DNA of 64,000 bases from an uncultured Acidimicrobiaceae bacterium (GTDB taxonomy: Bacteria; Actinomycetota; Acidimicrobiia; Acidimicrobiales; Palsa-688). Both the position numbers and the translations under genes were made by a program. The stretch lies in the NCBI GenBank assembly GCA_963834725.1, contig CAWICN010000001.1, forward strand, positions 1,038,831 through 1,102,830, read 5' to 3'. The notes under the pieces are model-generated. The model was not told where the DNA came from and ran no database searches. It was given only the letters and a program-made list of their open reading frames with translations. Positions 23,198 to 63,509 of this stretch are shown piece after piece; positions within the stretch are counted from its first letter, which is position 1, and every line of letters starts with the position of its first letter.

Positions 23198-23349
23198 CTC
23201 CCGACCGTCGGGCAACTCAACGACGCAGGCTTCCCGCTGCTCCCGACCTTCGCCCGGCCCCACTTCACCCTCCGACTAACCACCGCCGATGAGACCGAGA
23301 TCGACCGTCTCGTCGTAGCCCTCGGCCCAGAAAACCCCAACCGATACCG

Positions 23350-23637: not shown

Positions 23638-23643
23638 CGTGAG

Positions 23644-25933: not shown

Positions 25934-26522
25934 TGCTGCTCGGCCTGCCAGAAGTCGAGATCGTCGGGATCACCACGGTGGCAGACCCTGATGGCCGCCG
26001 AGGCGAATACGTTCGTCGGACGCTGGATGTGGCCGGGCGGGTCAACATCCCAGTGGCCGCCGGGGCCGGAGTCTCGTCGACCACCGGCGAGCGTATGGGG
26101 GATCTGCCCGATCACCGCCGCTACTGGGGCGGGGAGCCCGTGACACCTTCGCCTTCACCCATCGGGGCGGCTTTGGGCCTTCTGGCCGCCGCCGTTGAGA
26201 TGGGGGCTGTGCTGGTCGGGATAGGCCCGTACACCAACTTGGCGGCTCTTGAGGCGGCCCGGCCCGGTGCTTTGAGCAGCACCCTGGTGACGGTCATGGG
26301 CGGCTGGGTGCGACCACCTGCGAGAGGTCTGCCCCAATGGGGTCCGGAGATGGACTGGAACGTCCAGTGCGACACCCGGGCCGCGCTCACAGTGTTCGAG
26401 GCGTCTGCCGAGTCGCTGACGCTCGTGGCCCTGCCTGCCACACTCCAAGCCCACCTACGGGAAGCCCACCTGCCCCGCCTGGAAGCCTCCGGGCCGCTCG
26501 GCCTTCTCCTGGCCCGCCAAGC

Positions 26523-28429
26523 CTTAGCGAGCGACCTCAGACCTGCTGAAGCGCCGCGGTCAACTCGAGCGGGGATGGCTGGGGTCTGAGGTCTCTCGCG
26601 TTTTGGCCGGCCGGGATGGCTGCCTGTCGGTGCCGGGCCGGCAAAGCCGGCCCTATGCCGGTCGGTCGATTCGCCAGGCAGAAACGGATTGGTCCCCAAT
26701 AGCGTCCTGTGATCAACAAACCCACAGACCCGGCCGCGTCAACGGTCGGAGAGGAGGACACCATGGGGACCGTGGCCAGCCTACTGGCCGAGCATGTGAG
26801 CTTCCGTTGCACCTCGGTAGACCGTATCGGCATCCGCGGGTACATCCCGGGGTTGATGTATGAGGGAGGGGTGGTGAAGTTCCTGCTCAAGCGAGGCAAC
26901 TACATCCCCTCACCGGCCGCGTTGAACCGCAACCGGCAACGGCTGGTGAGCGAGCTCGACGCGCTCGGTGGCCGCCTCGGGGGTGCCGGTACTGCGTTTC
27001 AAGGCGGGCCAGTCCAAAGAGAACATGGCCCGCCCTTATCAAGACGGAGCGGCCGCGGCCGGCCGGTTCGGGCTGGTGCTGGTGGGCAAGGCCCAGGAGC
27101 GGACCAGTTCGTGGCGGGGCTTCGTCGATGACACCCACGCCCGGCATCGGCCCAACCATCCCCATATCACCTGGCGGCGCCAGTCGTCGGTGCCCGACCA
27201 CTGGTACCTGTATTTCGCTGACCCCGAGTGGGGCCCGACATCGCTACGGCTGGGCAGCTACGCGCCATACCCGTTGTGGGTCAACGCCAACGGACATGAG
27301 TGGGCCAAGGTTCAGCTGGCCAAGGCCGGCGTCGGCTTCGACGCGCTCGATAACGGTCTACGCCGGGTGGACGACCCCGCCCTGGCTCATCGCGTCTGCG
27401 CCCGCCTCGGTTCCGGTCATGTCCGCGATCTGCTGGCCCGGATGATGGCGGTCATGCCCAACCCGCTCACCGTCGATGATCGCCGGGCCGGCTTCGACTG
27501 GGCGTTCTCCATCGCCCAGATGGAGGTCTCTGACACCTCGGTATTCGACCAGCCCCGCCGGGCCCGGGCCTGGTTCGAGGCGGCCATCGACTGTCATCTG
27601 GACCTGGGCCGCCCCGAACAGGTGTCACTGGTCGTCGACCGCCAAGTCAGAAACCGCGGCAAACACAAGACCCCGGGACGGTTCGCCACCGAGGTCATCA
27701 CCCGCGACGTCGCCCCCCGCATCCAGATCCACTACAAGTCCTCCAAGGCCAAGGCCTACCTCAAAGAAGGCCGGGCTCTCAGAGTGGAGATGACGTTCAA
27801 CGACGCCGACGACTTCAACCTTCACAAGACCCTCAACAGCCACAACTGGCGGGCTCTGCGCCGACTCGGCGCGGATATCGACGCCCGGTTCCTGGCCGCT
27901 TTGGGCGAAGGACAGCCCGGACTGCCCGACCCCGCCACCCTCGAAGCAGTCGTGCTGCCCAGCCTCCACGACGGCCAGCGGGCCCCCGGGTTACGTTTCG
28001 GCGATCCCCGCACCATGGCCCTGCTCGCCTCCGTCGGCTCCTTCGCGCACGTCATCGGCGGGCTCACCAACAAAGCCCTGCGCACCCAGATGGCCGTCCT
28101 GTACAACCCCGACTACAGCCCCGCACAGGCGACCTACGATCTCCGCCGCCTACGGCTCAAAGGCTTCATCGAACGAATCCCCCACACCAACACCTACCGG
28201 GTCACCGCCCACGGCCTGCGCATCGCCGCCTTCTTCACCCAACTCGCCGCACGCGTCGTGATTCCCGCCCTCACCGACCTCGCCGCCCTCAGCCGACCAC
28301 GCCCACCCGCACCCCAACCCCTCACCGCCGCCTGGAAAGCCTACGAACGCGAACTCACCAACCTCCTACGAGCCAGCCCCCTCGCAGCATGACCCAAAAA
28401 CTTGCCTCAACTCTTCAGAACCTGGGACT
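26523..28429 (+). mobile_element. Unclassified insertion element (~1.9 kb, single large ORF); candidate 5-bp TSD CAAGC
   Basis: It interrupts the nucleoside hydrolase. CAAGC occurs at 26518-26522 and 28430-28434, and removing the element plus one copy restores the frame. The terminal similarity is weak (GACCTCAGACCTGCTGAAG at 26533-26551 versus the reverse complement of CTTCAGAACCTGGGACTC at 28413-28430). Confidence 0.55.
26763..28392 (+). pseudogene. Large (~543 aa) element-encoded protein of unknown family, C-terminal winged-helix-like; frameshift near 26965
   Basis: SD GGAGAGGAGGA precedes ATG 26763. The N-terminus (MGTVASLLAEHVSFRCTSVDRIGIRGYIPGLMYEGGVVKFLLKRGNYIPSPAAL) is in ORF 26709-27131. 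The rest is in ORF 26968-28392 (...VPVLRFKAGQSKENMARPYQ...HEWAKVQLAKAGVGFDALDNGL...ATYDLRRLRLKGFIERIPHTNTYRVTAHGLRIAAFFT). Confidence 0.65.
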
Positions 28430-28729
28430 CAAGCAGCGCTAGCCCATGCCGAGGATCATCACATGGCAGAGCTGGCCGCCACATGCTCTGGTCTCCCGGG
28501 GGACCTGCTCAACTTCCAGTACGATCCTGTGGCCTGCGCCGCCGCGGCCGACCCTTCCGGGCCGATAACAACGATCGAGTCGGTGCGCCTGATGCCGCGT
28601 CTCGAAGGCTCCGTGCTGCGATTTGAGGAGGTGCCTGCCGGCAAGGCCGTCTCAGTTGTCACTGATGTCGATGGTGAAGCCTTCGGTCGCTTGTGGCTGA
28701 CCGCGATCGAACGAGCTGACGAGTCGATC

Positions 28730-29531
28730 CTATTGCGTCCAGAGCCCACAGGGCTCCAGTGGTTCTGAAGCTGCGTCGCCCGCCGTTTCGGCCTTCACCG
28801 CTTCGATGGCGGCCGCGACTGTATCGATGGCGCGCGTCAGGGTCCGTCGGGTCGTCCCGAGAGCACCGAACCGTTCGTAGAGATCCGTCAGTTCGGCCCA
28901 GTCCGCCATTCGTTCTTGTTGAGTGCCCAAACACCATGGTGGGCGAGGCGAGCGTGAGCTGCTTGCATTGTTACTCGGGCGAGACTGCCGGCGCAGTTGA
29001 CTGGGTTTTCGGTCTTCACCCAATGCTGGGCATAGCTGAGCTCGCTGTCCGCCCCATCCAGCCAGGCGCGCGGGGCCTCCCGCCGTAGCGCAGGTGGGTA
29101 GGTCGTTGTGGGGAGATCGCCTACGAGCGTTTGGCTGATGGCGAGTTCGCCGGTGAGCATGTAGGTGGGGATGCCGGCCAGGTGGAAGCCGAGGAGGTGG
29201 ACCTCGAAGCGCCCCTGCTCTGCCTCCTGGGTCCAGTGCTCGACGACGTCGAGGTTTCGGTAGTGGATGTCGAAGTGGCGGCCATCGAGGTCGAACACGG
29301 CGCCTCCGTACATGACCTGGCCCATTCGAAGGGTCGGTACACCCGGCCGGGCCAGCCCAATTCTTCGAAGTAAGCGATGTCGATATTGCCGCGGAAGTAG
29401 ACCGCGAAGTCCCAATCGCTATCGGGGCGGTGGTCTCCCCGAGCGTGGGAACCCGCCGAGGGTAACGGCGACCATGTTCGGGAGCCGCCGGCACGCGGCC
29501 ACGACGTTCGCAACGAACTCGTCATCGGTCA
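28730..29531 (-). pseudogene. Nucleotidyltransferase-domain protein with helical (HEPN-like) C-terminus; three frameshifts
   Basis: Four segments in three frames: MTDDEFVANVVAACRRLPNMVAVTLGG / SHARGDHRPDSDWDFAVYFRGNIDIAYFEELGWPGRVYRPFEW / GQVMYGGAVFDLDGRHFDIHYRNLD...AAHARLAHHGVWALNKNE / RMADWAELTDLYERFGALG... The shifts are near 29450, 29320 and 28908. Confidence 0.7.
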
Positions 29532-29581
29532 TGAGTTGCTCCTGAACCTTGGGATGAACGCTTCGTGGCCGCCTGGGGTGG

Positions 29582-30283
29582 CTATGCCAGCTCTTCGGCG
29601 GCGGCGAGAGCTGTGGTTGCCCATATCTGTGGCGAGGGCTGCTCCGCGGCTACAGGGGCGATCCTTTTTCGGACAGACGGGCGTGCGTTATGTATGAGAG
29701 TGCTGGCCTGGTCGGCGTGCACCACGGCCGCCACGAGCAGGTCCTCGAGCGGGAGTGCCCCCAACACTTTGACTGGGTGAATCCCGTCAAAGCGGGCCGA
29801 GTCGAGCCCGACGAGTTCGGCCCAGCGGAAGTAGAAACGGACCGCCGGTGGATAACCGGGCCGAAGGTCGGCGGGCAGCAGGTCGCGGCCCAGTGTGCGG
29901 CTGAGCGCGACGGCCTCAGGTGCTGTGCAGCGCCCGATGGCGAACATGACATGGTCGAAATAGTCGGCCGGCTCGCCCCATGAACTTGCTGCGGCCAACT
30001 CTGAAGCGTCCCGGCCCGTGGCAGATGTCGCAGGAAGCAGCAGTCCCGATTCAACGATGCGGAACGCCGTTGGGAGCGGGGATCCATGGCACACGAGCGC
30101 GGATGCGCATCCATCGGGATAGGCATTCGAACAGCATTGGGTCGGCGCGCTGTCCGGTGCTAAGCGCTGCTCGGGGGGGCTCCAGGCGGCCCAATCTTGG
30201 AGGTCAGGATCCGCGTCGACCCGCACCGTCCGCCCGTGGCTTTGTTCGTACGCGAGGAAGTCGGAGACGGACTGGTAGTCCAA
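29582..30283 (-). CDS. Hypothetical protein (233 aa), possible ADP-ribosyltransferase-like fold
   Basis: Intact ORF. It contains ALVCHGSPLPTAFRIVESGLLLPAT (an H-G-S ... GL pattern as in PARP/Tpt1/DarT-type enzymes), then DYFDHVMFA / RFYF, then PLEDLLVAAVV. The assignment is pattern-based only. Confidence 0.55.
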   Translation of the reverse strand: MDYQSVSDFLAYEQSHGRTVRVDADPDLQDWAAWSPPEQRLAPDSAPTQCCSNAYPDGCASALVCHGSPLPTAFRIVESGLLLPATSATGRDASELAAASSWGEPADYFDHVMFAIGRCTAPEAVALSRTLGRDLLPADLRPGYPPAVRFYFRWAELVGLDSARFDGIHPVKVLGALPLEDLLVAAVVHADQASTLIHNARPSVRKRIAPVAAEQPSPQIWATTALAAAEELA

Positions 30284-30535
30284 CAGTGTCGGGCCGTCGG
30301 GTCGTATCGCGTGTCGGTATCGCCATTCGCCGTCCGGGCCGTGGGTTTGTCAAGTTGATTTGGCCCCACCGCGATGGTTTGATTTGGCCCCATCTGTGGG
30401 CGCGTGTGATCGATGTCGGTCGCTGTCAGCCACGCTGAGTGACGGTCGTTTTTCGAGCGTGTTCTCCGTTGTGGAGGCGGCCCGGGGATTGTCGTTGAGG
30501 GGTGAGGTTCCCCCACTCAGACTGGCTCGGCGCTA

Positions 30536-31944
30536 GTGCCCTGACCGCATACCTGCGCTTGGTTGGGGTCCACCATCTGTGCGGTGGGGTTGGTCATGGT
30601 GGGGGCATGTCTGCACGGGTGAGGGTGCGTCGGTTGACTGATGAGGAGGGCCGCCAGTTGCAACGGATTGTGCGGCGCGGCGGCGGGAAGAGCCAGGTGA
30701 GCGTGGTGCGCTACCGGCGGGCGTTGGTGGTGCTGGGTTCGGCGAGCGGCAACACGGTGGAGGTTCTGGCCCGGCTGGTGCAGACCTCGCCGGATCGGGT
30801 GCGGGAGATGATCCACCGGTTCAACGAGTCGGGGATGGCGTCGTTGGACCCTCAGTGGGCGGGTGGCCGTCCCCGCCGGATAACGACTGAGGACGAGAGG
30901 TTCATTGTGGAGACGGCCAAGACCCGCCCGGAAAAGCTGGGCCGGCCCTTCACGCATTGGAGTATCAAGAAGCTGCGGGTCTATCTGGCCGCCAACCGGC
31001 AGCGGAAGGTGGTGATCGGCAAGGAGCGGCTGCGCCAGATCCTGGCCGCCCATGAGGTGACCTTCCAGCGGACCAAGACCTGGAAGGAGTCCAACGACCC
31101 GGACAAGGAAGCCAAGCTGGATCGCATCGAGGAGCTACTGGAACGGTTCCCGGATCGGGTGTTCGCCTTCGACGAGTTCGGGCCGTTGGCCATCCACCCC
31201 ATCGGGGGCTGCTGCTGGGCCAAGAGGAAGAGACCTAACCGGCTGCGAGCCAACTATCACAAGGCGTGCGGGGTCCGGCAGTTCCACGCCTGCTACTCGG
31301 TGGGCGAGGACCGCCTGTGGGGCGTGATCCGCAAACGGAAGGGGACCGACTACTCGCTGGAAGCGATCAAGTCCTGCCGGCGGGCCCGGCCCGACGGCGA
31401 GCGGATCTACGTGATCCTCGACAACCTCAAGGCTCACAAGGCCAAGGCGATCCAACAGTGGTGCGCCAAGAACAACGTCGAACTGTGCTTCACGCCGACC
31501 TACTCGTCGTGGGCCAATCCCATCGAGTGCCACTTCGGCCCGCTGCGCGACTTCGTGTTGAACAACTCCGATCACGCCACCCACAACGTGTTGGGCCGCC
31601 GCCTGCACGCCTACCTCCGCTACCGCAACGAGCATGAGGCAGATCCGGCCATGCGCCAACGTCTGCGCAAGGAGCGGGCTCGGCTCCGCTCGGAACGACA
31701 ACGCCGTTGGGGCCGCCCAGCATCGCCTCCGGCGGCTCAGGCCGCCTGAAGCTCTCCCGCAGGTGAGTCGTTGCCCCGGTGTCAGTTCAACGCGCCATGC
31801 ATCGTCGTATCGCCCTTCCCGCCCATCGGCGAGACCCCCAGCCGGGCTCTCAAACCCGCTCGCGGCCCGACCGACCGGGACCCTAAATCACAAGCGTGAT
31901 ATTTAATGTCATTTGAAACGCGCGAAGGTTTGTGGCCGAGGCAC
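30536..31944 (+). mobile_element. IS630-family insertion sequence (1409 bp) flanked by TA duplication
   Basis: IRs are GTGCCCTGACCGCATACCT (left) and the reverse complement of AGGTTTGTGGCCGAGGCAC (right). TA is at 30534-30535 and 31945-31946. Confidence 0.8.
30607..31749 (+). CDS. IS630-family transposase
   Basis: Within ORF 30502-31749, ATG 30607 is inside the IS. N-terminal HTHs are followed by a DDE domain (...VFAFDEFGPL...IYVILDNLKAHKAKAIQQWCAKNNVELCFTPTYSSWANPIECHFGPL...). Confidence 0.9.
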   Translation: MSARVRVRRLTDEEGRQLQRIVRRGGGKSQVSVVRYRRALVVLGSASGNTVEVLARLVQTSPDRVREMIHRFNESGMASLDPQWAGGRPRRITTEDERFIVETAKTRPEKLGRPFTHWSIKKLRVYLAANRQRKVVIGKERLRQILAAHEVTFQRTKTWKESNDPDKEAKLDRIEELLERFPDRVFAFDEFGPLAIHPIGGCCWAKRKRPNRLRANYHKACGVRQFHACYSVGEDRLWGVIRKRKGTDYSLEAIKSCRRARPDGERIYVILDNLKAHKAKAIQQWCAKNNVELCFTPTYSSWANPIECHFGPLRDFVLNNSDHATHNVLGRRLHAYLRYRNEHEADPAMRQRLRKERARLRSERQRRWGRPASPPAAQAA

Positions 31945-32195
31945 TAGCCGGACCGGGGTGCCCTCCGGGGTGGTCTGGCTGGCGGCGGGGCAGCGGGGGT
32001 GTGGGGGTAGAGGCTCGCCGGTCAATGAGAATTTTTGGGCCGCCGGTGGCATGGCCGCGACAGGCGTGTCCGGTCTGGGGATTTTTCGATGTGGAAGTGG
32101 CGACCTCCTGGTGTAGTGGGGGTTGTTAATGAGGGGGGTGATTAGACGGGGCGACGGGGGGCTGCTATTCGGTTTGTTGAGGGAGGGACAGCGTT

Positions 32196-32924
32196 TTAGT
32201 CCAGGGGCGCCTCCGGGCTGGCCGGGTGCACTCGGTAGCGCCGCCGGGCGGCGGCGGGGGTGATGCCCAGACTGGTGGCGATGTCGGCCCAGGGGTGGCC
32301 CCCTTGTCGGGCCTGGGCCACCGCGGCCGGGATATCAGCTCGGGCTTGGGCGATGAGGCTGCCCAGGGCGTGCAGGTCGGCCGTGGGGTCGTAGAGCGAA
32401 CCCGGGAAGCGCAACAAGATGAGGGTGTTGAGGGCCTCGGCGAGGATGTGGGCGCTGTGGTGGTCGATGGCCGGGGCGGCGGGCGGGACGGGCAGCTCGT
32501 CGATGCTGATGGCGTCGACGTCGGGGTCGTCCGCAGCGTCGGGGTCGGGCTGGGCTGGGGGTATGGCGGATAGGTAGCGCCGGCCGATGGTGGGCTGGCT
32601 GGCACCCAGGCGCATGGCGATGTCGGACCGGCTGTAGCCGTGCCCGAGAGCGCAGCTGACCTGTTGGGGTATACGGGCTTGGACCTCGAGGGCCAGGCTG
32701 ACCATGCAGGAGAGGCGCACGCCGGGATCGGCCGGCCCGGCCGGGGAGCGCACCGTGCCCAAGGTGTCGAGGGCGTCGTCGACCAGCACGGCTGTGAGAT
32801 AGTCGGGGTAAGGCCGTTGGGCCTGTTCTTCGATATGGGGGTTGAAGACGGGGCTGGGGGCGTCGGGATGGGGCTCGGGGTCGGGGCGGCCCGGCCCCCG
32901 GTAGGGGCAGTAACGGTGGGTCAT
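32196..32924 (-). CDS. Tandem-HTH protein (242 aa) translationally coupled to istB; unknown function
   Basis: Its ATG overlaps the istB stop (ATGA at 32921-32924). There is an internal duplication: ...ARIPQQVSCALGHGYSRSDIAMRLGASQPTIGRRY and ...ARADIPAAVAQARQGGHPWADIATSLGITPAAARRRY. Confidence 0.6.
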   Translation of the reverse strand: MTHRYCPYRGPGRPDPEPHPDAPSPVFNPHIEEQAQRPYPDYLTAVLVDDALDTLGTVRSPAGPADPGVRLSCMVSLALEVQARIPQQVSCALGHGYSRSDIAMRLGASQPTIGRRYLSAIPPAQPDPDAADDPDVDAISIDELPVPPAAPAIDHHSAHILAEALNTLILLRFPGSLYDPTADLHALGSLIAQARADIPAAVAQARQGGHPWADIATSLGITPAAARRRYRVHPASPEAPLD

Positions 32925-33739
32925 CCCGGCTGCTCCTCACCGGTGGCGGGGGGGCTGTTGGACGGGGGGCTGGTGCGCCGTTTGGCCCCCCGGCTGGTTC
33001 GCAAACGATACGAGTCGTGGCCGGTCTCGACGATGAGGGCCTTAAAGGTGAGGCGGTCCACCACCGCCGCGGCCAGCCGGGGATCGCTGAAGGTGGCCCC
33101 CCATTCGCTGAAGCTGGCGTTGGAGGCGCAGGCGATGGACGCCTTTTCTTCTCGTTCGGTGATGACCTGGAACAAAAGCTCGGCACCCCGGGGGTCGAGG
33201 CGCACGTAGCCCAGCTCATCGAGACACAACAGCTCCAGGCGCCCATAGCGGCCCACCACCCGGGACAGCACCCGGTCATCGGCGGCCTCGGCCAACTCGT
33301 TGACCAGCGCCGCGCAGGTCACATAACGCACCCGGCGGCCCGCCTCGCAGGCCGCGATGCCGGTGCCGATCAATAGATGGCTTTTTCCGGTGCCGCTGTC
33401 GCCGATCAAACACAGCGGGCTGCCAGCGTTGATGAACCCGCCCGACGCGAGGGTGGCGATGAGGGCCGGATTGACATTGGGGTTGGCCGAGCAGTCGAAA
33501 TCGCCCAGCCGTTTGGCTCGCGGAAAGCGGGCCTCATGGACGCGCCGGGCCCGGCGGCGGGCGTCGCGCTCGTCGACCTCGGCGGTGAGGATCTCGGCCA
33601 GATAGCCCAGATGGGTGAGCTGTTCCTTGGCGGCCTGGGCGGCCAAGGCGGCGGCCTCGGCTCGCACCGTGGGCAGGTGCAGATCCCGGCAGGCCGCGCC
33701 GATGGCGGCCTGGGCGGCCTCGTCGGTGCGGGCGCTCAT
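32921..33739 (-). CDS. istB: IS21-family helper ATPase IstB
   Basis: Walker A LCLIGDSGTGKSHL, Walker B LELLCLDELGY. Its ATG overlaps the istA stop (ATGA at 33736-33739). Confidence 0.9.
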   Translation of the reverse strand: MSARTDEAAQAAIGAACRDLHLPTVRAEAAALAAQAAKEQLTHLGYLAEILTAEVDERDARRRARRVHEARFPRAKRLGDFDCSANPNVNPALIATLASGGFINAGSPLCLIGDSGTGKSHLLIGTGIAACEAGRRVRYVTCAALVNELAEAADDRVLSRVVGRYGRLELLCLDELGYVRLDPRGAELLFQVITEREEKASIACASNASFSEWGATFSDPRLAAAVVDRLTFKALIVETGHDSYRLRTSRGAKRRTSPPSNSPPATGEEQPG

Positions 33740-35271
33740 CGGGCCACCCCGGCCAGCAGGGCGTCGTAGGCGCCCAAGCTGGGCGCCGGGCGCATGGCCA
33801 GACGGGCGCCGATGGGCACCACCACCCCGGCCGGCTCGGGCCGGGCCCGGTCCTGGCAGCGGCGGGCTTCCACGGCCACCACGTCGGGATCGACCGAGCC
33901 CACGGCCAGAGCCGCCCGCATGCCAGCAGTGACCGCCGCGGCGGGCAGGCTGCGATGCAGCAGCAGCACCATGCACAGCGCCCGGGTGCCGGCCCCGTCA
34001 CCCAGGCGGCGGCGGGCCGCCTCCCAGAACGCCTCGTGAGCGGCCTCGAAGGCGCCCCCGGCGCGGGCCTGGGCCAAGGCGGTGGATCCGGGCAACGCCC
34101 CCGGTTTGCGGATCAAGACTTCCAGGTAGTGATCCAACACCAGCTCTTCGCTGCCCTTGTGCAAGCTACGGCAGTGGCGGGCCACCACCTTGCCGTCCGC
34201 GATCACCTCAAACGAGCGGGCCCCGAGGCGCACCTCCACCCGGCGGCGGGCCAGCCCGGCCGGCACCGAGTACAGACTCTGGCGGACACAGATACGGGCC
34301 TTGGTGTCCACGATGGGGTGCAGCACCGTAGTGGTGTCGAAGACCTCCACCGGCACCGGCCGCAAGAAAGCCCGCTCGCCAGCTGCGGCTTCGCCCACCG
34401 TCTGGTCACGCCATACGATCACCCTGTACTCGTCGGCGACGTCGGCCGCCGCCAGCCGCTCGTTCAGCTCGGCTAGCGACCCCACTCGAGGCACCGGCAC
34501 CAGATGGTTGCGGCGGAATCGGCCTACCTCGCCTTCCACTCCACCCTTTTCATGGCTACCCGCAATGCCCGGCAGACAGTAGAAGCTGTCGAAACCGAAA
34601 TGGCTGCGCAGCGCCACGAACCGGGGGTTCTCTAACCGGGCCCGGCCCAACAGCACCTTAAGCACGGCGTCCTTAAGGTTGTCGTAGCGGATCCGACCCG
34701 GGACCCCGCCAAAATGCTCGAAGGCATCCACATGGCCCTCCAGGAACGCCTCCTGGGCCTGGTTGGCGAAGGCCACATGAAACCCTCGCCCCGAGAAGCT
34801 CAGCCGCATGCAGAACATCCACAACTCGCAATAGACGCTGTCCACCCAGGCCACGAACCCGCCGAAGTCCACCTCGGCCTCCTCGCCCCGGCCATGCTGC
34901 TGGGGCACCATCACGGCCAAATCGTGGTTCTCCAACTCGAAGCGGACCTGGGCCACAAACGCCCGCACCGTGGACTCGGCCACTCCAGCCCCGCACTCAT
35001 CCCGCAGCCGCACCCACACCCGACGGGCGGTATGACGCTGCTTGCGCGGCGCCGCCAAATCGTCGGTCAGCCACTCCCGGATAGTGCCCTGCCAGGGGCC
35101 CAACGCCGGCGACACCCGCTCGGGCACCTTGCGCTCCGGCGGGATCGCCGACGCCAACGCCTGGCGCACCGTACGCCGATGCACCCCGAACCGCTCAGCC
35201 AAGGCACGGATCCCCATGCCCTCCTCACGGTTCGCCTTCCGAATACGTTCATAAAGCTCCACCCTTGACAT
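33736..35271 (-). CDS. istA: IS21-family transposase IstA
   Basis: ORF 33736-35307, with the probable start at ATG 35271 after GGAGAAGGAG. HTH GIRALAERFGVHRRTVRQAL, then a DDE core (...AEVDFGGFVAWVD...RYDNLKDAV...). Confidence 0.9.
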   Translation of the reverse strand: MSRVELYERIRKANREEGMGIRALAERFGVHRRTVRQALASAIPPERKVPERVSPALGPWQGTIREWLTDDLAAPRKQRHTARRVWVRLRDECGAGVAESTVRAFVAQVRFELENHDLAVMVPQQHGRGEEAEVDFGGFVAWVDSVYCELWMFCMRLSFSGRGFHVAFANQAQEAFLEGHVDAFEHFGGVPGRIRYDNLKDAVLKVLLGRARLENPRFVALRSHFGFDSFYCLPGIAGSHEKGGVEGEVGRFRRNHLVPVPRVGSLAELNERLAAADVADEYRVIVWRDQTVGEAAAGERAFLRPVPVEVFDTTTVLHPIVDTKARICVRQSLYSVPAGLARRRVEVRLGARSFEVIADGKVVARHCRSLHKGSEELVLDHYLEVLIRKPGALPGSTALAQARAGGAFEAAHEAFWEAARRRLGDGAGTRALCMVLLLHRSLPAAAVTAGMRAALAVGSVDPDVVAVEARRCQDRARPEPAGVVVPIGARLAMRPAPSLGAYDALLAGVAR

Positions 35272-35475
35272 CTCCTTCTCCCTCGTTCCAACAGGTGTGG
35301 CAACCACGGAACGTAGGGGCTGGTGGTTGAGGGTGGGGCCACTTCAAACCATCAAAAGTGGCCTCAGTGGGGCCAGATCAGGATGTCATTCCCACGTGGG
35401 TTGCCGTGCGGAAACAGCAAACCGCCGCGCCGCAACTCCATCACCGACCAAGAGGTGCTTACCGCGCCGGGTCGC

Positions 35476-54824: not shown

Positions 54825-55751
54825 TCACTGCTCGGTGTGAAGATCCGCGTTCAGCTCTCCCCAACTCCCTGCCCTCGGTAGGACCTCGATCGCTCCGGTC
54901 TGGCTGTTGCGGCGGAACAGTAGGCGCGATCGACCGCTGAGCTCCCTCGCCTTGGCTTTGGTGCTGTCGGGCAACGATACGACCGCGCCGGCGGTGAGGT
55001 ACAGCCCGGCTTCGACTATGCAGTCGTCGCCCACTGCGATACCCAGACCGGAGTTCGCGCCCAGCAGACAGCGTTCTCCGATCGACACTCTTTCTGTGCC
55101 TCCACCGGAGAGGGTTCCATCGTCGAAGCTCCTCCACCGATGTCGCTCCCCGCGCCTACCACTACGCCTTGGCTGATCCGCCCTTCGACCATCGCCGAGC
55201 CCAGGGTCCCGGCGTTGAAATTGACGAAGCCCTCGTGCATGACTGTGGTGCCTTCCGCCAGATAGGCGCCCAGGCGGACCCGACGCCCGTCGGCTATGCG
55301 GACTCCGGATGGGACGACGTAGTCGACCATCTTCGGGAATTTGTCCACCGAGTGGACTTCAAAATGGGCGCCTTTGGCGCGAGCCCTCGACCGGACCTCT
55401 GCCAGGTCATCGGGATGGACCGGGCCGATAGAGGTCTAGCAGACATTCGGCAAGGTTGAAGATTCCGTCCAGGTTGAGACAGTTCGGTTTGATCAACCGA
55501 TGCGAAAGTAGCTGCAAACGGAGGTAGGCGTCCCCGACACTGGCTGAGGCATCATCAAGATCGTTTATCGAGATCCGGACCGCCTTGATCTCAACTCCAC
55601 GTAGAGGGTCGGTCCGTTCCAACCCGACGAGCTCAGGATCCATAACCTCGCCGGCGGGTGCGACACCGAGCCGGGGACGAGGGAAGAACACCTCCAGAGG
55701 ATTGCCGCCACGGAGAGTGGCCAGGCAGTCCGCCCAAGCCGGTCGAGTCAC
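54825..55751 (-). pseudogene. dapD: Tetrahydrodipicolinate N-succinyltransferase (DapD), two frameshifts plus an in-frame TAG
   Basis: The pieces are in ORFs 55407-55874 (DAYLRLQLLSHRLIKPNCLNLDGIF), 55016-55348 ([49 protein letters not shown]...GSDIGGGAS) and 54825-55088 ([29 protein letters not shown]...RELSGRSRLLFRRNS). The linker reads [15 protein letters not shown], with TAG 55436-55438 where Trp is conserved. Confidence 0.8.
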
Positions 55752-56010
55752 GACTCGGAGGGTAGCGGTAACTGTGATGCCCGACCGGACTAACGGCCGT
55801 GTCGCCTGCCGGGAGCGGGGATTCGCGCGAGGCGCATGACGATCGGACCCGACCCTGGAGTGTGTGCCGATCACAGTTCGCGCTCGGATGGTCGGCCAAC
55901 CTGGGCTTCTCCAGCTTCAGTCGTCGTTCGGGGGACTGGAGCCTGTGACGGATTCGGGGAGGTGCCGGCCATATAGGGTCAGTGGGATCCGTCCAAACCT
56001 TGAGGAATGG

Positions 56011-56597
56011 GTGAGTCGTGGGGCCCGGGATGATGGCCGGGCTGTGGCCTCGAAGCTCTCAACGCGGCTCACGCTGCCTCGGTGCTGGGGTACGTCCGTC
56101 GTCGGGTAGACCTCGGCGATGTTGAGGACGTTCTCGCCCAGGTATTCGTGGTGGCATGGCGGCGCTTCGATCAGATCCCGTCAGCTCCGCAGGATCGGCT
56201 TTGGCTGTTTGGGGTGGCTCGGCGGATCGTCGCCGATCATCGGCGCTCGACAATCCGCCGCCAGCGACTCCACCATCACCTAGCGAGTCAGGTCCGTGCT
56301 CTCGATGGTCCGTCATCGAGTTTCAGCGAGTTGCACGTCCGTGTCGACTCGGTGTTGGGGGCGCTCAGCCGCGGCGACCAGGAGGTGCTTCGTCTTGTTC
56401 TTTGGGGGGGGTTGAACCACCCGGAGGCCGCTGCGCAGTTGGGCTGCTCGGTCAACGCGGTCGAGTTGCGTTACAGAAGGGCGCGGGCCAGATTCCGAGC
56501 CCTCTTACAAGCATCGCCGACCACAGCTCGGCCGCTCTCCACGACCCCCCGTCGCACCATCCCAGCCGTAGCCGAAAAGAGTCCTCAAGGAGGGTCC
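56011..56597 (+). pseudogene. ECF sigma factor remnant, N-terminally frameshifted and lacking its own stop (reads into gmd)
   Basis: Region 2 is VFVVAWRRFDQIPSAPQDRLWLFGVARRIVADHRRS. Region 4 is LSRGDQEVLRLVLWGGLNHPEAAAQLGCSVNAVELRYRRARARF. A possible N-terminus (GTG 56011) is in another frame. There is no stop before gmd. Confidence 0.5.
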
Positions 56598-57584
56598 ATG
56601 CCCCGCGCTTTGATCACCGGTATAACCGGCCAGGACGGTCGTTACGTAGCCGAGCTGTTGATCGGCAAGGGATACCAGGTGCATGGGGTGATCCGCGGTC
56701 AGAACAACCCCAAGGCGGTGATCGTCCAAGACGAGATCCCCGAAGTCGAGCTGATCAGCGGTGACCTGACCGATCTGTCGTCGTTGATCGCCGCGGTCGA
56801 GCAGGTGCAGCCTGACGAGGTCTACAACCTGGGGGCGGTCAGCTTCGTCAAGCTGTCGTTCAGCCAGCCCGAGCTGACCGCGGACGTGACCGGAACCGGC
56901 GTGCTTCGGATGCTCGAGGCGATCCGCATCGTGGGGGGAGCTAACAACCGGATCCGGTTCTACCAAGCGGCCACTTCGGAGATGTTCGGCCAGGTACGCG
57001 AGAGCCCTCAGCGGGAGACCACCCCGTTCCATCCCCGCTCCCCGTACGGCACCGCCAAGGTGTTCGGCTTCTACACGACCGTAAACTACCGGGAGTCCTA
57101 CGGCATCCACGCCTCCAATGGGATCCTGTTCAACCACACCAGCCCGCGGCGGGGCATCGAGTTCGTCGAGCGCAAGATCACCAACGCGGTAGCCCGCATT
57201 TCGCTCGGCCTTCAGGACATGCTGACCCTGGGCAACATCGACACCTCCAGGGACTTCGGCTACGCCGGCGACTACGTCGAAGCCATGTGGAGGATGCTTC
57301 AGCAAGACCAGCCCGGAGACTACGTCGTTGCTACGGGCCGGACGTGGACCATCCGCCAAGTTCTCGACATGGCCTTCGCGGCGGTAGGCATCGACGACTG
57401 GTCGCCGTATGTCGCCACCGACGACCGCTTTCTTCGTCCGGCCGAGGTCGACCAACTGGTCGGGGACTCCACCCACGCCCGGGAGGCCCTGGGCTGGGAA
57501 CCCAAGACCGAGTTCCCCGAAGTGCTCGAAGAGATGGTCCGCCACGACATCGAAGTTGAACGAGCCCGAGCCAACCTCGCCTAA
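56598..57584 (+). CDS. gmd: GDP-mannose 4,6-dehydratase
   Basis: SD AAGGAGGG precedes ATG 56598. Motifs: MPRALITGITGQDGRYVAELLIGKGYQVHG...YQAATSEMFG...SPYGTAKVFGFYTTVNYRESYG...GILFNHTSPRRG. Confidence 0.9.
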   Translation: MPRALITGITGQDGRYVAELLIGKGYQVHGVIRGQNNPKAVIVQDEIPEVELISGDLTDLSSLIAAVEQVQPDEVYNLGAVSFVKLSFSQPELTADVTGTGVLRMLEAIRIVGGANNRIRFYQAATSEMFGQVRESPQRETTPFHPRSPYGTAKVFGFYTTVNYRESYGIHASNGILFNHTSPRRGIEFVERKITNAVARISLGLQDMLTLGNIDTSRDFGYAGDYVEAMWRMLQQDQPGDYVVATGRTWTIRQVLDMAFAAVGIDDWSPYVATDDRFLRPAEVDQLVGDSTHAREALGWEPKTEFPEVLEEMVRHDIEVERARANLA

Positions 57585-57604
57585 ACCTGCGGGTCGAATA
57601 ACCA

Positions 57605-58423
57605 ATGTGGCCATCCGGTGCGGTCTGCAAGGCTGAACTGGTGCAGATCTCATCCAGCGTGGAGCCGAACCCGCTGGCCGAGGACCTGGCCCTGGCGTTC
57701 CGCCTGGCCGAGACGGCCGGCGAGGTCGCCCTCAGGTACTTCGAGGAGGGTGTCGGCTCGACTCCCAAGGCCGACGGGACTCCGGTGACCGAAGCGGACT
57801 TCGCGGTAGAGGCCGCGCTTATGAATATCTTGGCCCAAGAACGACCTCACGACGGGATCGTTAGCGAGGAAGGCGGACACCGCCACGGCGCCAACCGCCG
57901 ATGGATCCGCGATCCCATCGACGGGACGGTCAACTTCGCGGCCGGCGATCCACAATGGGGAACCCATGTGGCCTTAGAGATCGACGGAGACATCGCGATC
58001 GGCATCATCACCCGGCCCGTGGCCGACGAAACGTGGTGGGGATTCCGAGGGGGCGGGGCGTTCCGATCATCTGGCTCCTTGAGCCCGGTCCGCTTCCAGG
58101 TTTCGACAGTCGACGCGCTCGCTGACGCCCGAGTCTCGATGTGGCCCGCCGACTCGGACCCGAGACTCGACGCCCTCAAAGCTGCCGCGACGTGGGTTGA
58201 ACCCGACTGGGCGTTGATAAAGAGTCTTGTGCAGGGCGACCTGGATGCTGTCGTGGCAGCGGCCGGGGGCATATGGGATCACGCCCCCGCCGTACTTCTC
58301 GTGCGCGAGGCTGGCAGCCAGTTCTGCGACCACGACGGCGGCCACCGCCTCGACACCGGAGGCGGCATCTACAGCAACGGCCGCCTGCACGACCAGCTCA
58401 AGAGCCTGCTGATTCACGCCTAA
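57605..58423 (+). CDS. Inositol monophosphatase family protein (HisN/SuhB-like)
   Basis: PVTEADFAVEAALMNIL...IVSEEGG...WIRDPIDGTVNF...WDHAPAVLLVREAG. The start is uncertain (internal GTGs near 57641 and 57659). Confidence 0.8.
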   Translation: MWPSGAVCKAELVQISSSVEPNPLAEDLALAFRLAETAGEVALRYFEEGVGSTPKADGTPVTEADFAVEAALMNILAQERPHDGIVSEEGGHRHGANRRWIRDPIDGTVNFAAGDPQWGTHVALEIDGDIAIGIITRPVADETWWGFRGGGAFRSSGSLSPVRFQVSTVDALADARVSMWPADSDPRLDALKAAATWVEPDWALIKSLVQGDLDAVVAAAGGIWDHAPAVLLVREAGSQFCDHDGGHRLDTGGGIYSNGRLHDQLKSLLIHA

Positions 58424-58462
58424 AGGCGCGCTGTCGACCTGAGCAGAGTCGACCCGGCAGTA

Positions 58463-58972
58463 ATGATTACCGGTATGGAATCCATCGTTTTGGAGCCGAA
58501 TGCCAGCGGCCGGTTGTGGGGCGAGGACCCTGAAGTGTGGAACTGGTTGTGCAGTCCCGAGGGCTGCCCGCACTGCAACGACTCCGAACGCGCCGGAACG
58601 GTGGCAGAGACCGATCAGATTTGGGTGAACGTCTGGCCTGAAGCCGTCCTACCCGGTTACGTGTGCGTCTTTTCCAAGCGGCATGTGATCGAGCCGTTCG
58701 ATCTGTCCGAAGCTGAGCAAGCTCGGTTCTTCCTCGACTGCATGGCGGTCGCCCGAGGTGTTTCTTCAGCAACGAATCCGGCGAAGATGAACTACGAGAT
58801 CCACGGCAACACGGTGCCGCACCTGCACATGCATCTCTTCCCGCGCACCGCCGACGATGTGTACGTCGGCTTTCCCAATCATTGTCGAACCACCTTCCAC
58901 CGAAGCGAGAGAGACATAGCTCTGATAGCGACGGCCGTTCGGGAAAGCCTCGGTCCACGACTATTGGCCTGA
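58463..58972 (+). CDS. HIT family protein
   Basis: GYVCVFSKRHVIEPFDLSEAEQ...NTVPHLHMHLFPR (histidine triad). Confidence 0.8.
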   Translation: MITGMESIVLEPNASGRLWGEDPEVWNWLCSPEGCPHCNDSERAGTVAETDQIWVNVWPEAVLPGYVCVFSKRHVIEPFDLSEAEQARFFLDCMAVARGVSSATNPAKMNYEIHGNTVPHLHMHLFPRTADDVYVGFPNHCRTTFHRSERDIALIATAVRESLGPRLLA

Positions 58973-59082
58973 CGGCCCCAAGCCCTGCAGTGTCTCCGAC
59001 TGAACGCTCCGAGGCTGAACGCGGCTGGGCGGCCGGGGAGAGGCATTGACTTTGCCCTGCGGGGAGGGTTCATGCTCTAGGG

Positions 59083-60380
59083 GTGCACGATCTTTTGAGC
59101 ATCGGAGACTTCGCCGCTCGCTGCGGTCTGTCGGCCAAGATGCTGCGGTCGTACGCGGCAGCCGGCCTGTTGATGCCTGCCGCGGTGGACGGCTCGTCGG
59201 GTTACCGCTACTACTCGATCGTTCAGTTTCGCCGGGCCGAGGTCATCGGTCTGCTTCGCCGAGCCGGTATACCGATCCGCGACATCGCCGGCTTCCTGCG
59301 TGACCCCGAATCGACCCAGCTGGACCGCTGGGACAACCAGCTTATCGCGCAGGTTGCGGCCCGACGACAAGCGTTGGCGGACGCCCGCGCCGTTTTGGAT
59401 CTGGACAGCACCTCCCCTCCGTCAGCCCGATCTACCCCAGCGAAAGGATCCCCGATGACCCTAACCGTTGCGGCCGGCTCCGCCACCCAGAAAGGCGGAC
59501 GCGATGCCAACCAGGACGCCGTGCTCATAGGCGACGATCTCTACGCCGTGGCCGACGGCCTTGGAGGTCTCCAAGACGGAGAGATCGCCAGCCACCTCGC
59601 CCTAGAAACCCTCCAGATCACCTTCGCTGTCGATCACAGCAGTTCCGGGCTGCTCCACGCCTGCCAGGAGGCCAACCGAGTGGTGTGGAAACGAGCAACC
59701 CTACAAGGCGACGACCCGACCATGGGAACCACAGTTGCCGCCGTGGGGATCACATCTGACTCCGCGGTGGTCGTCGCCCACGTTGGCGACTCGCGCCTCT
59801 ACCATTTCAACAACGGCCGACTAAGTACTTCGAATCTCAACTACGTTGATGATCTCAAAGCTTCGCCGATAGGCCGCTCTGCCCTGTTCGTCCGCGTGTC
59901 TTCAAGCCCAGATCATCAACGTAGTTGAGATCTGAAGCACTAAGCCAGATCACCGGCGATCACAGCATCGTGGCCGATCTGCTCCGCTCCGGTCAGCTGA
60001 GCGAACAAGACGCCAAGACCCACCCCGATCGCCATGTCCTGACCCGGGCGTTGGGGGTGGCTCCTGACGTGCAGGTCGACATCGCGGCAGTCCCGTGCGA
60101 GACCGGCGACAGGCTGCTGTTGTGCACCGACGGACTGTTCAAGGCCCTCACCGTCGACGAACTTGCGGTCGCGCTCGCGTCGGACAGCGAACCTCAACGA
60201 CTGGCCGACGACCTGGTCTCAAGCGCGGTGCGCGCCGATGCCGAAGACAACGTCACCGTCTTGGTCATGGATCTTCAACAAGAGGCTGACCGCTGTGTTA
60301 CCTCTAGTCGAAGGAGAGTGGTCACACACGTCGTGCCATCCACAGCCGGGTCTGGTAGGCGACCTGCATCTCGCCGTTGA
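59083..60380 (+). pseudogene. MerR-type HTH fused to a PP2C Ser/Thr phosphatase domain, interrupted by a MITE
   Basis: The N-terminus is LSIGDFAARCGLSAKMLRSYAAAGLLMPAAVDGSSGYRYYS (MerR). PP2C motifs follow: RDANQDAVL...YAVADGLGG...GTTVAAV...AHVGDSRLY, then (after the insertion) ITGDHS...HVLTRALG...LLLCTDGL...DNVTVLVMDL. Joining 59083-59825 to 59945-60380 gives 1179 nt, in frame. Confidence 0.8.
59826..59939. mobile_element. Miniature inverted-repeat element (114 bp) with 5-bp direct duplication CTAAG
   Basis: CTAAG is at 59821-59825 and 59940-59944. The terminal inverted repeats (59821-59855 versus 59910-59944) match at 31 of 35 positions, and the inner 22 bp (ATCTCAACTACGTTGATGATCT) are perfect. 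There is no coding capacity. Confidence 0.75.
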
Positions 60381-61065
60381 CGAACTGCTTGCGCAGGATC
60401 GCCTCGACATCACGAAGCAGATCGCCCCGCCGGTCTTCGCCGAGGCCGATCACATAGGAGTGGCTTCTCAGGTCGATCAACCAATCCTCGACGCTCACCT
60501 CGCGCTGCCAGGAGAATATGTGACGCCGTGCCACATCGAAGGCGTCGGAGGCGGCGATAGTCTCCGCGCACCAATCGATGTTCCTTTGGTTGCGCGACAT
60601 ACCGGGGCAGGTGCTCTCAAGAAGTGAGTAGTAGTCGTCGAACCAGGATTGCTGATCGGCCCACGGGTGATTCCACCACGCCGCCCACCAGCCACCAGGC
60701 TTGAGGATCCTGGCTATCTCCGCCGTGCCGCCTGGTTGGTCCACCCAGTGCCAACTCTGTCCCCAGCACACCAGGTCGAAGACCCCGGATCGAAACGGGC
60801 TCGCGGCGCCGTCAGCGATCGCCGCTTCGAGACCCACGGTTCGGGCCGTTGCCTTTCGGAGCATCCTTTCGCCGGGGTCGAAGGCGACGACCTTGGCATG
60901 ACGCTCTATCAGCTGTCGGGTGACCACGCCGGTACCGGCACCGCCATCAGCCACGCTCTTGCCGGCCAAACCGCCACATGACACGTCCAGAAGGTCGTAA
61001 ACCTCCTTCGGATAAGAAGGTCGAGCCGCGCCGTACTCCGCCGCGGCCTCCTCGAACAGCCTCAC
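60322..61065 (-). CDS. Class I SAM-dependent methyltransferase
   Basis: 247-aa ORF: YGAARPSYPKEVYDLL...VADGGAGTGVVTRQLIERHAKVVAFDPGERML...LKPGGWWAAWWN. Confidence 0.85.
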   Translation of the reverse strand: MRLFEEAAAEYGAARPSYPKEVYDLLDVSCGGLAGKSVADGGAGTGVVTRQLIERHAKVVAFDPGERMLRKATARTVGLEAAIADGAASPFRSGVFDLVCWGQSWHWVDQPGGTAEIARILKPGGWWAAWWNHPWADQQSWFDDYYSLLESTCPGMSRNQRNIDWCAETIAASDAFDVARRHIFSWQREVSVEDWLIDLRSHSYVIGLGEDRRGDLLRDVEAILRKQFVNGEMQVAYQTRLWMARRV

Positions 61066-61204
61066 CTGACAAGTGTCGCACTCCGAGGACCAGGCACGTG
61101 ATGGTGTGGCTGTCGCTCAACAGTCCCGGCGGTCACCGGCAAGACCCGACGGTGATGATCTGAAGGTCGCCAGGATCGGAACCGCCTTGACGGCGCCGGT
61201 CGGG

Positions 61205-61261
61205 ATGGCTTTCAATATGGTCACGATGTTCGCCCTGACCGGATCGCTTCTCCTTATGTGA
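61205..61261 (+). promoter_or_regulatory. Candidate Leu-rich leader peptide (18 aa) of a leuS attenuator
   Basis: ATG 61205 ... TGA 61259-61261 gives MAFNMVTMFALTGSLLLM. There are three consecutive Leu codons CTT CTC CTT (61247-61255) and in-frame alternative ATGs at 61217 and 61226. Confidence 0.45.
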
Positions 61262-61291
61262 CGGCGAGCGGTACTTCTCGCTCGCCACCAG

Positions 61292-61320
61292 CCTCCTGCC
61301 CCGGCAGGAGGTTTTTTGTT
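61292..61320 (+). terminator. Intrinsic terminator in the leuS 5' leader
   Basis: CCTCCTGC-CCCG-GCAGGAGG followed by TTTTTTGTT. It is preceded by a second perfect hairpin, GGCGAGCG-N8-CGCTCGCC (61263-61286). No upstream + strand gene ends here. Confidence 0.65.
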
Positions 61321-61364
61321 GCCCTCGAAAGGACCACTGAGATGCAAGAGAACGGACCACTCCG

Positions 61365-63509
61365 GTGGGTGTCGCCTATGACTTCGCCGAGATCGAAACC
61401 CGATGGCGCCAAGACTGGGAAGCCGACGGTCTGTACCGCCTCGACTTAGACGCCATACACCCCGAGCGGGTCTTTTACAACCTGGTCGAGTTCCCCTACC
61501 CCTCCGCCGGGGGCCTGCACGTGGGGCATGTGTTCAAGTACTCCGGCGCCGACGCTTACGGCCGCTATCAGCGCATGCGGGGCCGGGCGGTGTTCCAGCC
61601 GATCGGTTTCGACGCGTTCGGCATCCACACCGAGAACTTCGCCATCAAAGCCGGCCAGCACCCCATGCGCCTGACGGGGCGGACCACCGAGGCGTTCCGG
61701 GCTCAGCTGTCACGGGGAGGGATGGCCTGGGACTGGTCTCGGTGCGTGGATACCAGCCGTCCCGGCTACTACCGCTGGACCCAGTGGATCCTGACCCGAC
61801 TATTCGACGCCGGTTTGATGTACCAGGCCGAAGCGCCGGTGCTGTGGTGCCCGTCCTGTCTGACCGTGCTGGCCCGGGAGCAGACGGAGACCGAAAACGG
61901 GGAGCAGGTGTGCGAGCGGTGCTCGACCCCGGTGGTCGAGCGTCAGATGCGGCAGTGGTTCCTGCGCACCACCGCCTACGCAGATCGTCTGCTGGCCGGT
62001 TTGGGCGGGTTGGACTGGCCGCAGCGGGCCAAACGTCTGCAACGCCAGTGGATCGGGCGGTCGGAGGGACGAGAGATCGACTTCGGAGATCTGACCGTGT
62101 TCACCACCCGCCCCGACACCCTGCCCGCGGTCACCTTCTTGGCCGTCCCGCCCGGCCATCCCGCCGTCGGCGGACACCGCCCCCACCCGCTCACCGGCAT
62201 GCCAGTACCGGTGGTCGCCGCCGACTATGTGATCGAGTCATACGGGACCGGAGCGGTGATGGGAGTGCCGGCGCGTGACGACCGAGACGCCCGCTACGCC
62301 GCCCAACACGGCCTCCCCGTCTCTGACGCGCCCCTCCTGAACGCGGACGACGCCGCCGGGGTCGGTCGGGCCGCGGTGCGCTACCGGATGCGGGACTGGC
62401 TGATCTCCCGCCAGCGCTACTGGGGGCCGCCCATCCCCATCATCCACTGCGACGCCTGCGGACCCGTGTCGGCGCCCGAGCAGGATCTACCAGTGCTGCT
62501 GCCCGAGGTGGAGGAGTTCCGCCCCACCGGCACCGGCAAGTCCCCTCTGGCCACCGTCGAAGCTTTCGTCCGGGCCCGCTGCCCGCGCTGCGGCGGTCCG
62601 GGCCGGCGCGAGACCGACGTGTCCGACACCTTCGTCGACTCGGCCTGGTACTTCCTGCGCTACCCGTCCACCGACTTTGACGACCGGGCCTGGGACTCAG
62701 AACGCACCGCCCGCATCCTGCCCGTCGACTTCTACGCCGGCGGCCCCGAGCACGTACAGCGCCATCACCTCTACGCCCGGTTCATGACCATGGCCCTCCA
62801 CGACCTGGGATTGGTGGACTTAGAAGAACCGTTCCCCCGGATCCGCCTGGGCGGCCTGATCATCAAAGAGGGAGCGAAGATGTCCAAGAGCCGCGGCAAC
62901 GTGGTCGGACCCGACGGCTACGTCACGGATCATGGCTCGGACGTGTTGCGCTGCGCCCTGTTGTTCACCTGCCCGTGGGAGGCCGGCGGCGACTTCCACG
63001 ACGACACCATCGCCGGCATCGAGCGGTTCTTCACCCGAGTGTGGAACACCGTCACCACCCAACCGTCAGAGATGGACCGAGCCGACCCTGTGGTGGAGCG
63101 CACCATCGTGGCGGTCAGCGACGCCATCGAGAAGCTCAGCTTCAACGTCGCCCTGGCCCGCCTGATGGAGATGACCGCTTCCGCGACCACCGCCAGAGCC
63201 AAACGGGTCCTGGTCCAACTGCTGGCGCCCTTCGCCCCGCATCTGGCCGAGGAGCTGTGGGCCCGCCTCGGCGAGCCCTATAGCGTGCATACCAGCGCAT
63301 GGCCCGCACCCGATGCGACGGTCCTGGGATCGCAACCGGTCCAGGTCGTCGTCCAAGTCGACGGCAAAGTTCGAGCACGGATCGCCGTACCTGCCGACGC
63401 CGACGAGACACAGATCATCGACGCAGCCGTTCGGGCCGTCAACGGAATGACAGCGGCCAGAACCGTCTACGTGCCCGGCCGCCTGGTCAACTTCGTCACC
63501 CGAAACTGA
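61365..63509 (+). CDS. leuS: Leucine--tRNA ligase (compact 714-aa form)
   Basis: HIGH motif (GLHVGHVF), KMSKS, CP1/editing motifs TTRPDT and YGTGAVMGVPARDDRD, zinc-type CxxC pairs, and the C-terminal tRNA-binding tail VVQVDGKVRARIAVPADA...VYVPGRLVNFV. Confidence 0.95.
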   Translation: MGVAYDFAEIETRWRQDWEADGLYRLDLDAIHPERVFYNLVEFPYPSAGGLHVGHVFKYSGADAYGRYQRMRGRAVFQPIGFDAFGIHTENFAIKAGQHPMRLTGRTTEAFRAQLSRGGMAWDWSRCVDTSRPGYYRWTQWILTRLFDAGLMYQAEAPVLWCPSCLTVLAREQTETENGEQVCERCSTPVVERQMRQWFLRTTAYADRLLAGLGGLDWPQRAKRLQRQWIGRSEGREIDFGDLTVFTTRPDTLPAVTFLAVPPGHPAVGGHRPHPLTGMPVPVVAADYVIESYGTGAVMGVPARDDRDARYAAQHGLPVSDAPLLNADDAAGVGRAAVRYRMRDWLISRQRYWGPPIPIIHCDACGPVSAPEQDLPVLLPEVEEFRPTGTGKSPLATVEAFVRARCPRCGGPGRRETDVSDTFVDSAWYFLRYPSTDFDDRAWDSERTARILPVDFYAGGPEHVQRHHLYARFMTMALHDLGLVDLEEPFPRIRLGGLIIKEGAKMSKSRGNVVGPDGYVTDHGSDVLRCALLFTCPWEAGGDFHDDTIAGIERFFTRVWNTVTTQPSEMDRADPVVERTIVAVSDAIEKLSFNVALARLMEMTASATTARAKRVLVQLLAPFAPHLAEELWARLGEPYSVHTSAWPAPDATVLGSQPVQVVVQVDGKVRARIAVPADADETQIIDAAVRAVNGMTAARTVYVPGRLVNFVTRN

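Follow-up and report, generated by a model that had tools for sequence, protein, structure and literature searches.

A probable MITE inserted at CTAAG splits a MerR-PP2C gene of an uncultured Acidimicrobiaceae bacterium

Two overlapping open reading frames (ORFs) near the end of the 64-kb stretch of DNA analysed here (the window) raise the question whether they are two genes or the halves of one, and, if the latter, what kind of sequence has split it. The first-pass annotation proposed a MITE-type insertion into a gene that joins a MerR-type HTH to a PP2C phosphatase. This proposal was strengthened by the detection of four further copies of the element, with different flanks, in other genomes, and the locus very probably carries a 114-bp non-autonomous DNA transposon (MITE) inserted at CTAAG in the middle of the PP2C domain of a MerR-HTH::PP2C gene.

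Read on the forward (+) strand, the locus now consists of a 281-aa ORF (59083-59928) and a 151-aa ORF (59925-60380). The stop codon of the former, TGA at 59926-59928, overlaps the TTG at 59925 that opens the latter, and both codons belong to the right terminal repeat of the element. When 119 bp were taken out and positions 59083-59825 (the 5' part of the gene, codons 1-247 plus 2 nt) were joined to 59945-60380 (the 3' part, with the second half of PP2C), a 1179-nt ORF was obtained, and the 392-aa protein that had been predicted to result from excision was thus recovered. In this restored protein Pfam detected MerR/MerR_1 (aa 6-73; MerR HTH at ~59098-59301) and PP2C_2/PP2C/SpoIIE (aa 141-358), the first half of the PP2C domain beginning at ~59503. 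Alignment with ten homologues was gapless across the junction (...GDSRLYHFNNGRL / SQITGDHS..., joined at GRL/SQ), as was alignment with the PP2C structure MspP (PDB 2jfr), which was matched over the full length of the PP2C domain with an E value of 3e-45. The catalytic-domain motifs of the restored protein align with those of the homologues and of MspP. These gapless alignments show that the 119 bp are an insertion and not native sequence; homologous PP2C genes do not contain the segment.

The insertion site CTAAG corresponds to the codons CTA-AGC (Leu247-Ser248), and the break is at about residue 120 of the 234 residues of MspP, in the middle of the catalytic domain. The truncated product consists of 247 native residues followed by 34 residues encoded by the element, and the last 145 native residues are in the separate ORF. 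Judged from the sequence, the N-terminal product would retain the MerR DNA-binding part, and the gene has probably been inactivated as a phosphatase. The ORFs 59083-59928 and 59925-60380 are halves of one MerR-PP2C gene, and the annotation should read disrupted gene.

The insertion looks recent, since neither gene half has lost its reading frame and the two copies of the duplication are identical. The predicted sequence of the empty site is GGCCGACTAAGCCAGATCACC. The first-pass annotation had suggested that an empty site might be seen in related strains; no such allele was found, the closest homologue among the matches listed being 63% identical, and the exact restored 392-aa protein was absent from a collection of 15 billion proteins searched by look-up. 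Three matches of partial coverage (P0087, P0089 and P0101) were considered as other MITE-disrupted orthologues and rejected, as they proved to be frameshifted reads and not insertions. The ORF also has, at 60276-60380, a 34-residue tail beyond the end of all homologues and of MspP, whose coding sequence shares 59 bp with the convergent methyltransferase gene (60322-61065). This C-terminal tail could reflect loss of the original stop codon, either natural or after inactivation.

The 114-bp element occupies positions 59826-59939 and is abutted on each side by CTAAG, the left (59821-59825) and right (59940-59944) target-site duplications; in the 3-bp reading derived from the family comparison (see below) the left duplication is TAA at 59822-59824. 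The order at the junctions is ...GGC CGA CTA AG / TACTTCGAATCTCAACTACGTTGATGATCT - 54 bp - AGATCATCAACGTAGTTGAGATCTGAAGCA / CTAAG CCAG..., and the element with its second CTAAG thus has the sequence originally described. A repeat finder returned inverted arms of 35 nt at 59821-59855 and 59910-59944, which are 89% complementary (31/35) when CTAAG is counted in, in agreement with the arms and the perfect inner 22 bp reported before. Counted without CTAAG, the element's own terminal inverted repeats, left at 59826-59855 and right at 59910-59939, are 30 nt long with 27/30 matching. The inner 22-mer ATCTCAACTACGTTGATGATCT is a perfect match between both arms; it has only two sites in the 64-kb window, and none of 100 shuffled sequences (0/100) matched it with three or fewer mismatches.

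The core between the repeats (59856-59909) is 54 bp long and free of ORFs, as had been noted, and the element as a whole has no ORF of its own. Its GC content is 50%, against 66% for the window. The element is predicted to form, when transcribed, a hairpin of -53 kcal/mol (z = -8). Sites resembling a promoter or a terminator were not found in it, and a comparison with Rfam at E values up to 1 gave no match. A coding remnant in the core was also considered, as in the copy at locus L003 (see below) one frame reads ...RHAFTRWEVLKSEIINVVEI followed by a stop, but a 1-nt indel at this place in the L001 copy shows that the frame is not conserved. Read outward, the right terminal repeat (59910-59939) has a stop codon in all three frames (TAG, TGA, TGA), so that a host ORF entered in that orientation ends inside the element.

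Independent short-read contigs from run ERR11594400 span both junctions (L010 corresponds to window positions 55211-59850, L009 to 59918-61614), which rules out an assembly artefact as the source of the insertion. Both contigs stop about 30 nt into the repeats, where the k-mer loses its unique flank. These assembly breaks inside the repeats suggest that the repeat ends occur more than once in the ERR11594400 sample. Contig L010 also bears on a gene upstream of the insertion: the ORF at 56082-57584 encodes 500 aa combining an ECF-sigma-like part (Sigma70_r4_2/Sigma70_ECF, aa 44-141) with a complete GDP-mannose 4,6-dehydratase (aa 176-485), and L010 likewise has it called as one gene. Either the fusion is real or a stop codon has been lost.

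The search for copies and for an autonomous partner that the first-pass annotation had recommended was fruitful in its first half. A scan with the exact 22-mer, in which each species was represented by one genome, yielded four further copies from three MAGs (uncultured Acidimicrobiaceae MFD00731.bin.2.167 and MFD04967.bin.2.22, and Actinomycetota MFD09368.bin.2.27), which makes five copies in at least four genomes and at most two per genome (loci L002 and L004 belong to one MAG). Each of the further copies has both ends, is 112-115 bp long and lies between unrelated flanks. Among the five aligned copies, mean pairwise identity was 95% in the terminal repeats and 53% in the cores, whereas the flanks were at the random level (24-30%). 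The left end TTCGAATC and the right end TTCAGATC differ slightly from each other, and these small differences are identical in every copy, which indicates descent from one ancestral element and allows the orientation to be defined.

The other four copies (L001-L004) are all intergenic, in agreement with the finding that about 90% of bacterial MITEs are located between genes (PMC11602168). The L002 copy (4192-4315) is situated exactly on the TAA stop codon, within CTAAG, of a methyltransferase gene; the duplication regenerates the TAA stop, and the methyltransferase gene is thus intact. The L003 copy precedes a start codon by about 25 bp, the L001 copy comes after a terminator-like hairpin, and the L004 copy is in a divergent promoter region. 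By comparison of these sequences the element belongs to a true mobile family, which is rare, known from five copies and of low copy number. Small size (about 50-800 bp), lack of coding capacity, inverted ends, a target duplication and copies at unrelated sites are features that define a MITE, and the element shows each of them; a cognate autonomous IS with matching ends, a further such feature, was not found in the collections covered (see below). A well-defined MITE family is thereby added from a poorly studied soil lineage, which offers, in its ends and its CTWAG target, a means of finding the transposase.

CTWAG is the sequence of all ten flanks of the five copies (10/10), with a central W that never differs between the two sides of a copy (5/5): in the orientation of the element, CTAAG is present on both sides in three copies and CTTAG on both sides in two. 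Since the flanks are direct and not inverted repeats, they represent a target duplication that includes W. CTWAG has 19 sites in the 64-kb window, two of which are the element's duplication, a number below the shuffle mean of 32. A preference for CTWAG, which is rare in DNA of 66% GC, brings the copies to stop codons and to AT-richer intergenic spots. The positions flanking CTWAG vary among the copies and do not form an extended palindrome; a literature search for CTWAG or CWCTTAGWG as a target gave nothing usable.

As far as the sequences of the copies go, the duplication is either TWA (3 bp) or CTWAG (5 bp), and both fit all five copies equally. In the 3-bp reading the element is 116 bp long and its termini, G...C, are invariant in all ten ends, whereas a duplication of 5 bp leaves the element with two outermost bases that differ from copy to copy (TA, TG, AG, CG). 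Bases at a cleavage site are normally the most conserved, and for this reason a duplication of TWA is preferred to one of CTWAG.

A duplication of the whole CTWAG would require another kind of partner. Duplications of 5 bp are made by the IS1380, IS2-group, ISAba11, IS1634 and Tn3 families in ISfinder terms, and the element could accordingly be a Tn3-family derivative (TIME) or be moved by a transposase of the IS1380, IS2-group, ISAba11 or IS1634 type. Besides the equally good fit of the 5-bp duplication to the five copies, the length of the ends is in favour of this explanation, as 30-35 bp differs less from the Tn3-family length of ~38 bp than from that of typical IS5 ends. Tn3-family and TIME ends, however, begin with GGGG, and those of the element begin with TAC/TGC (or GTAC/GTGC), on which ground derivation from Tn3 was rejected. 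Two variable outermost bases would be unusual at a cleavage site, all the more as the outermost base in the 3-bp reading is invariant, and no transposase of any such type with related ends is present in the window. Taking these points together, a partner that duplicates 5 bp is considered unlikely, although it is the most serious of the competing explanations.

With the preferred TWA duplication, the following mechanism can be envisaged. A DDE transposase would act in trans on the element by binding the conserved 30-bp ends, and would cut the near-palindromic target CTWAG with a stagger, most likely of 3 nt (C^TWA_G), to leave a duplication of TWA, which is characteristic of transposases of the IS5 family (IS427/IS1031-like) and of PIF/Harbinger. 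Insertion of PIF/Harbinger elements duplicates TTA or TAA (TWA), and the transposase they use is similar to that of bacterial IS5 (PMC4482050, PMC2213677); the actinobacterial IS5-family element IS1237 duplicates TTA/TAA (PMC2516522). By analogy with these two precedents an IS5-type DDE transposase acting in trans is our leading candidate for the partner, an assignment made tentatively. Ends of 30 bases are long for IS5-type elements, and those of PIF/Harbinger measure 14-25 bp (PMC4482050, PMC2213677); both observations argue against a partner of the IS5/PIF type.

The second half of the recommended search, for the autonomous partner, gave nothing. The transposases encoded in the window are of the IS630 type (30502-31749, DDE_3 + HTH) and the IS256 type (21805-23112, Transposase_mut), together with an IS21 pair (istA 33736-35307, istB 32921-33976); none of these IS630, IS21 and IS256 elements has ends related to the MITE, and no IS5-type gene was detected among the ten large window ORFs that were scanned. 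An nhmmer profile built from the ten ends retrieved the known copies only, from the window and from all loci. JGI metagenomes scanned with the 19-mer CTCAACTACGTTGATGATC gave four single matches in low-GC unrelated contexts, and IMG/VR scanned with an 18-mer gave one match; all were dismissed as chance. When the element was compared by blastn with 72,556 plasmids, weak matches to the core (E 0.1-4) and none to the terminal repeats were obtained. A protein database was searched by proxy with the peptides that the ends would encode in five frames; seven candidates shared words and none scored. Thus, no autonomous element with matching ends was found in the window, the loci, the JGI metagenomes, IMG/VR, the plasmids or the protein proxy search.

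That no accessible collection yielded a partner or a relative of the ends is the basis for a further explanation, namely an undescribed CTWAG-specific transposon group in Acidimicrobiia and related Actinomycetota whose partner is not a catalogued IS. A prokaryotic lineage near PIF/Harbinger with unusually long 30-bp ends would be an example. We regard such a group as improbable.

The genes for the transposases mentioned above, IS256-like, IS630-like and IS21 istA/istB, lie within 14 kb (21805-35307), and this part of the window looks like an IS-rich patch. A repeat of ~115 bp in inverted orientation (7134-7250 versus 31933-32047, 82-89% identical), which is unrelated to the CTWAG element, has one of its copies (31933-32047) about 185 bp downstream of the IS630-type ORF 30502-31749. 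The copy at 31933-32047 may be an IS630 end, and that at 7134-7250 may be a solo or remnant copy.

A different kind of explanation concerns the host gene rather than the origin of the element. The split gene might still give a working or a new product, in the form of a MerR protein with half of PP2C and a C-terminal fragment whose translation starts anew at the overlapping TTGA, or the insertion might be a reversible on/off switch that operates by precise excision. It is true that both halves remain ORFs, that the TGA at 59926-59928 overlaps a TTG at 59925 in frame with the remaining PP2C, and that the source record annotates the 151-aa ORF as a protein. Open halves, however, are equally expected after a recent insertion, the catalytic fold is broken in its middle, no Shine-Dalgarno-like sequence precedes the TTG, and the transcript would carry the hairpin of -53 kcal/mol. 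The intergenic position of the other four copies, moreover, gives no sign that the family has been selected for insertion in genes. These considerations make a functional split product or a switch very improbable.

Hardly credible, finally, is a MITE of the IS630/Tc1 type that duplicates TA, a reading that the first-pass annotation had allowed, and that is mobilised by the IS630 of the window. The presence of an IS630-type transposase gene at 30502-31749 and of TA in the element's flanks could be quoted for it. The variable W of CTWAG, however, is part of what is duplicated and co-varies on both sides in 5/5 copies, so that with a TA duplication the element would have to start with AG in some copies and with G in others. 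The candidate ends of the IS630 element (30476-30506 and 32014-32044) are unrelated to those of the MITE, and the terminal-repeat profile picked up nothing else in the window.

The host gene was initially thought to be unusual in joining its two domains, a view that did not hold. Nearly all of the best 120 listed homologues (~357 aa) carry both MerR and PP2C, which are thus fused and not separate genes in the relatives; the listed proteins came from Nocardia, Mycobacterium, Saccharopolyspora, Acidimicrobiales and many metagenomes. MerR is already included among the partner domains of PP2C in a survey published in 2025 (PMC12088040). Fusions of MerR to PP2C are widespread among Actinobacteria and have been catalogued before; no functional characterisation of such a fusion was found in the literature. 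Overall, this is an ordinary transposon insertion by a new member of the MITE class, and the case leaves the understanding of MITEs or of PP2C signalling unchanged.

The restored host protein shares its two-domain layout with the actinobacterial MerR-PP2C proteins. The window copy differs from them and from MspP, which are uninterrupted and lack the 34-aa C-terminal extension, in having both the interruption and the extension. Among mobile elements, the Correia elements of Neisseria and the RUP elements of Streptococcus pneumoniae are MITEs of ~100-150 bp whose long inverted ends fold into a strong hairpin in the transcript; they duplicate TA, a reading that is excluded for the element described here. 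Maize PIF is said to have been shown by Zhang and co-workers in 2001 to prefer the palindrome CWCTTAGWG, the centre of which is CTTAG as in the element's target. The Tourist/mPIF MITEs are short non-autonomous derivatives on which a DDE transposase related to that of IS5 acts in trans, and they share with the element, if the 3-bp reading is correct, the TTA/TAA duplication of PIF/Harbinger (PMC4482050, PMC2213677). Tourist/PIF elements, in contrast, are eukaryotic and have ends of 14-25 bp with a different sequence, and their extended palindrome is not seen here. IS1237/ISLxx6 of Leifsonia xyli (IS5 family, IS427/IS1031 groups) resembles the element in its actinobacterial host and, if the duplication of the latter is one of 3 bp, in duplicating TTA/TAA (PMC2516522), and it is the only bacterial precedent documented here for such a duplication in the phylum. 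IS1237 is, however, an autonomous element of 899 bp, and its 19-nt ends (GAGGTGGTTTCAGTAGTCG) have no obvious similarity to those of the element (PMC2516522). By analogy, the closest documented counterpart is MITEAba12 of Acinetobacter baumannii, a 113-bp element with inverted ends and a target duplication that disrupted hns (PMC6382973). The 16-bp ends of MITEAba12 are the same as those of the co-resident ISAba12, and its 9-bp duplication has no fixed sequence, whereas the element described here has 30-bp ends, a CTWAG target and a duplication of 3 or 5 bp, and no matching IS was found for it. In other respects the two are alike: their sizes are nearly equal, both have inverted repeats around a non-coding core, both are found in few copies in related genomes, and each has disrupted the gene of a regulator.
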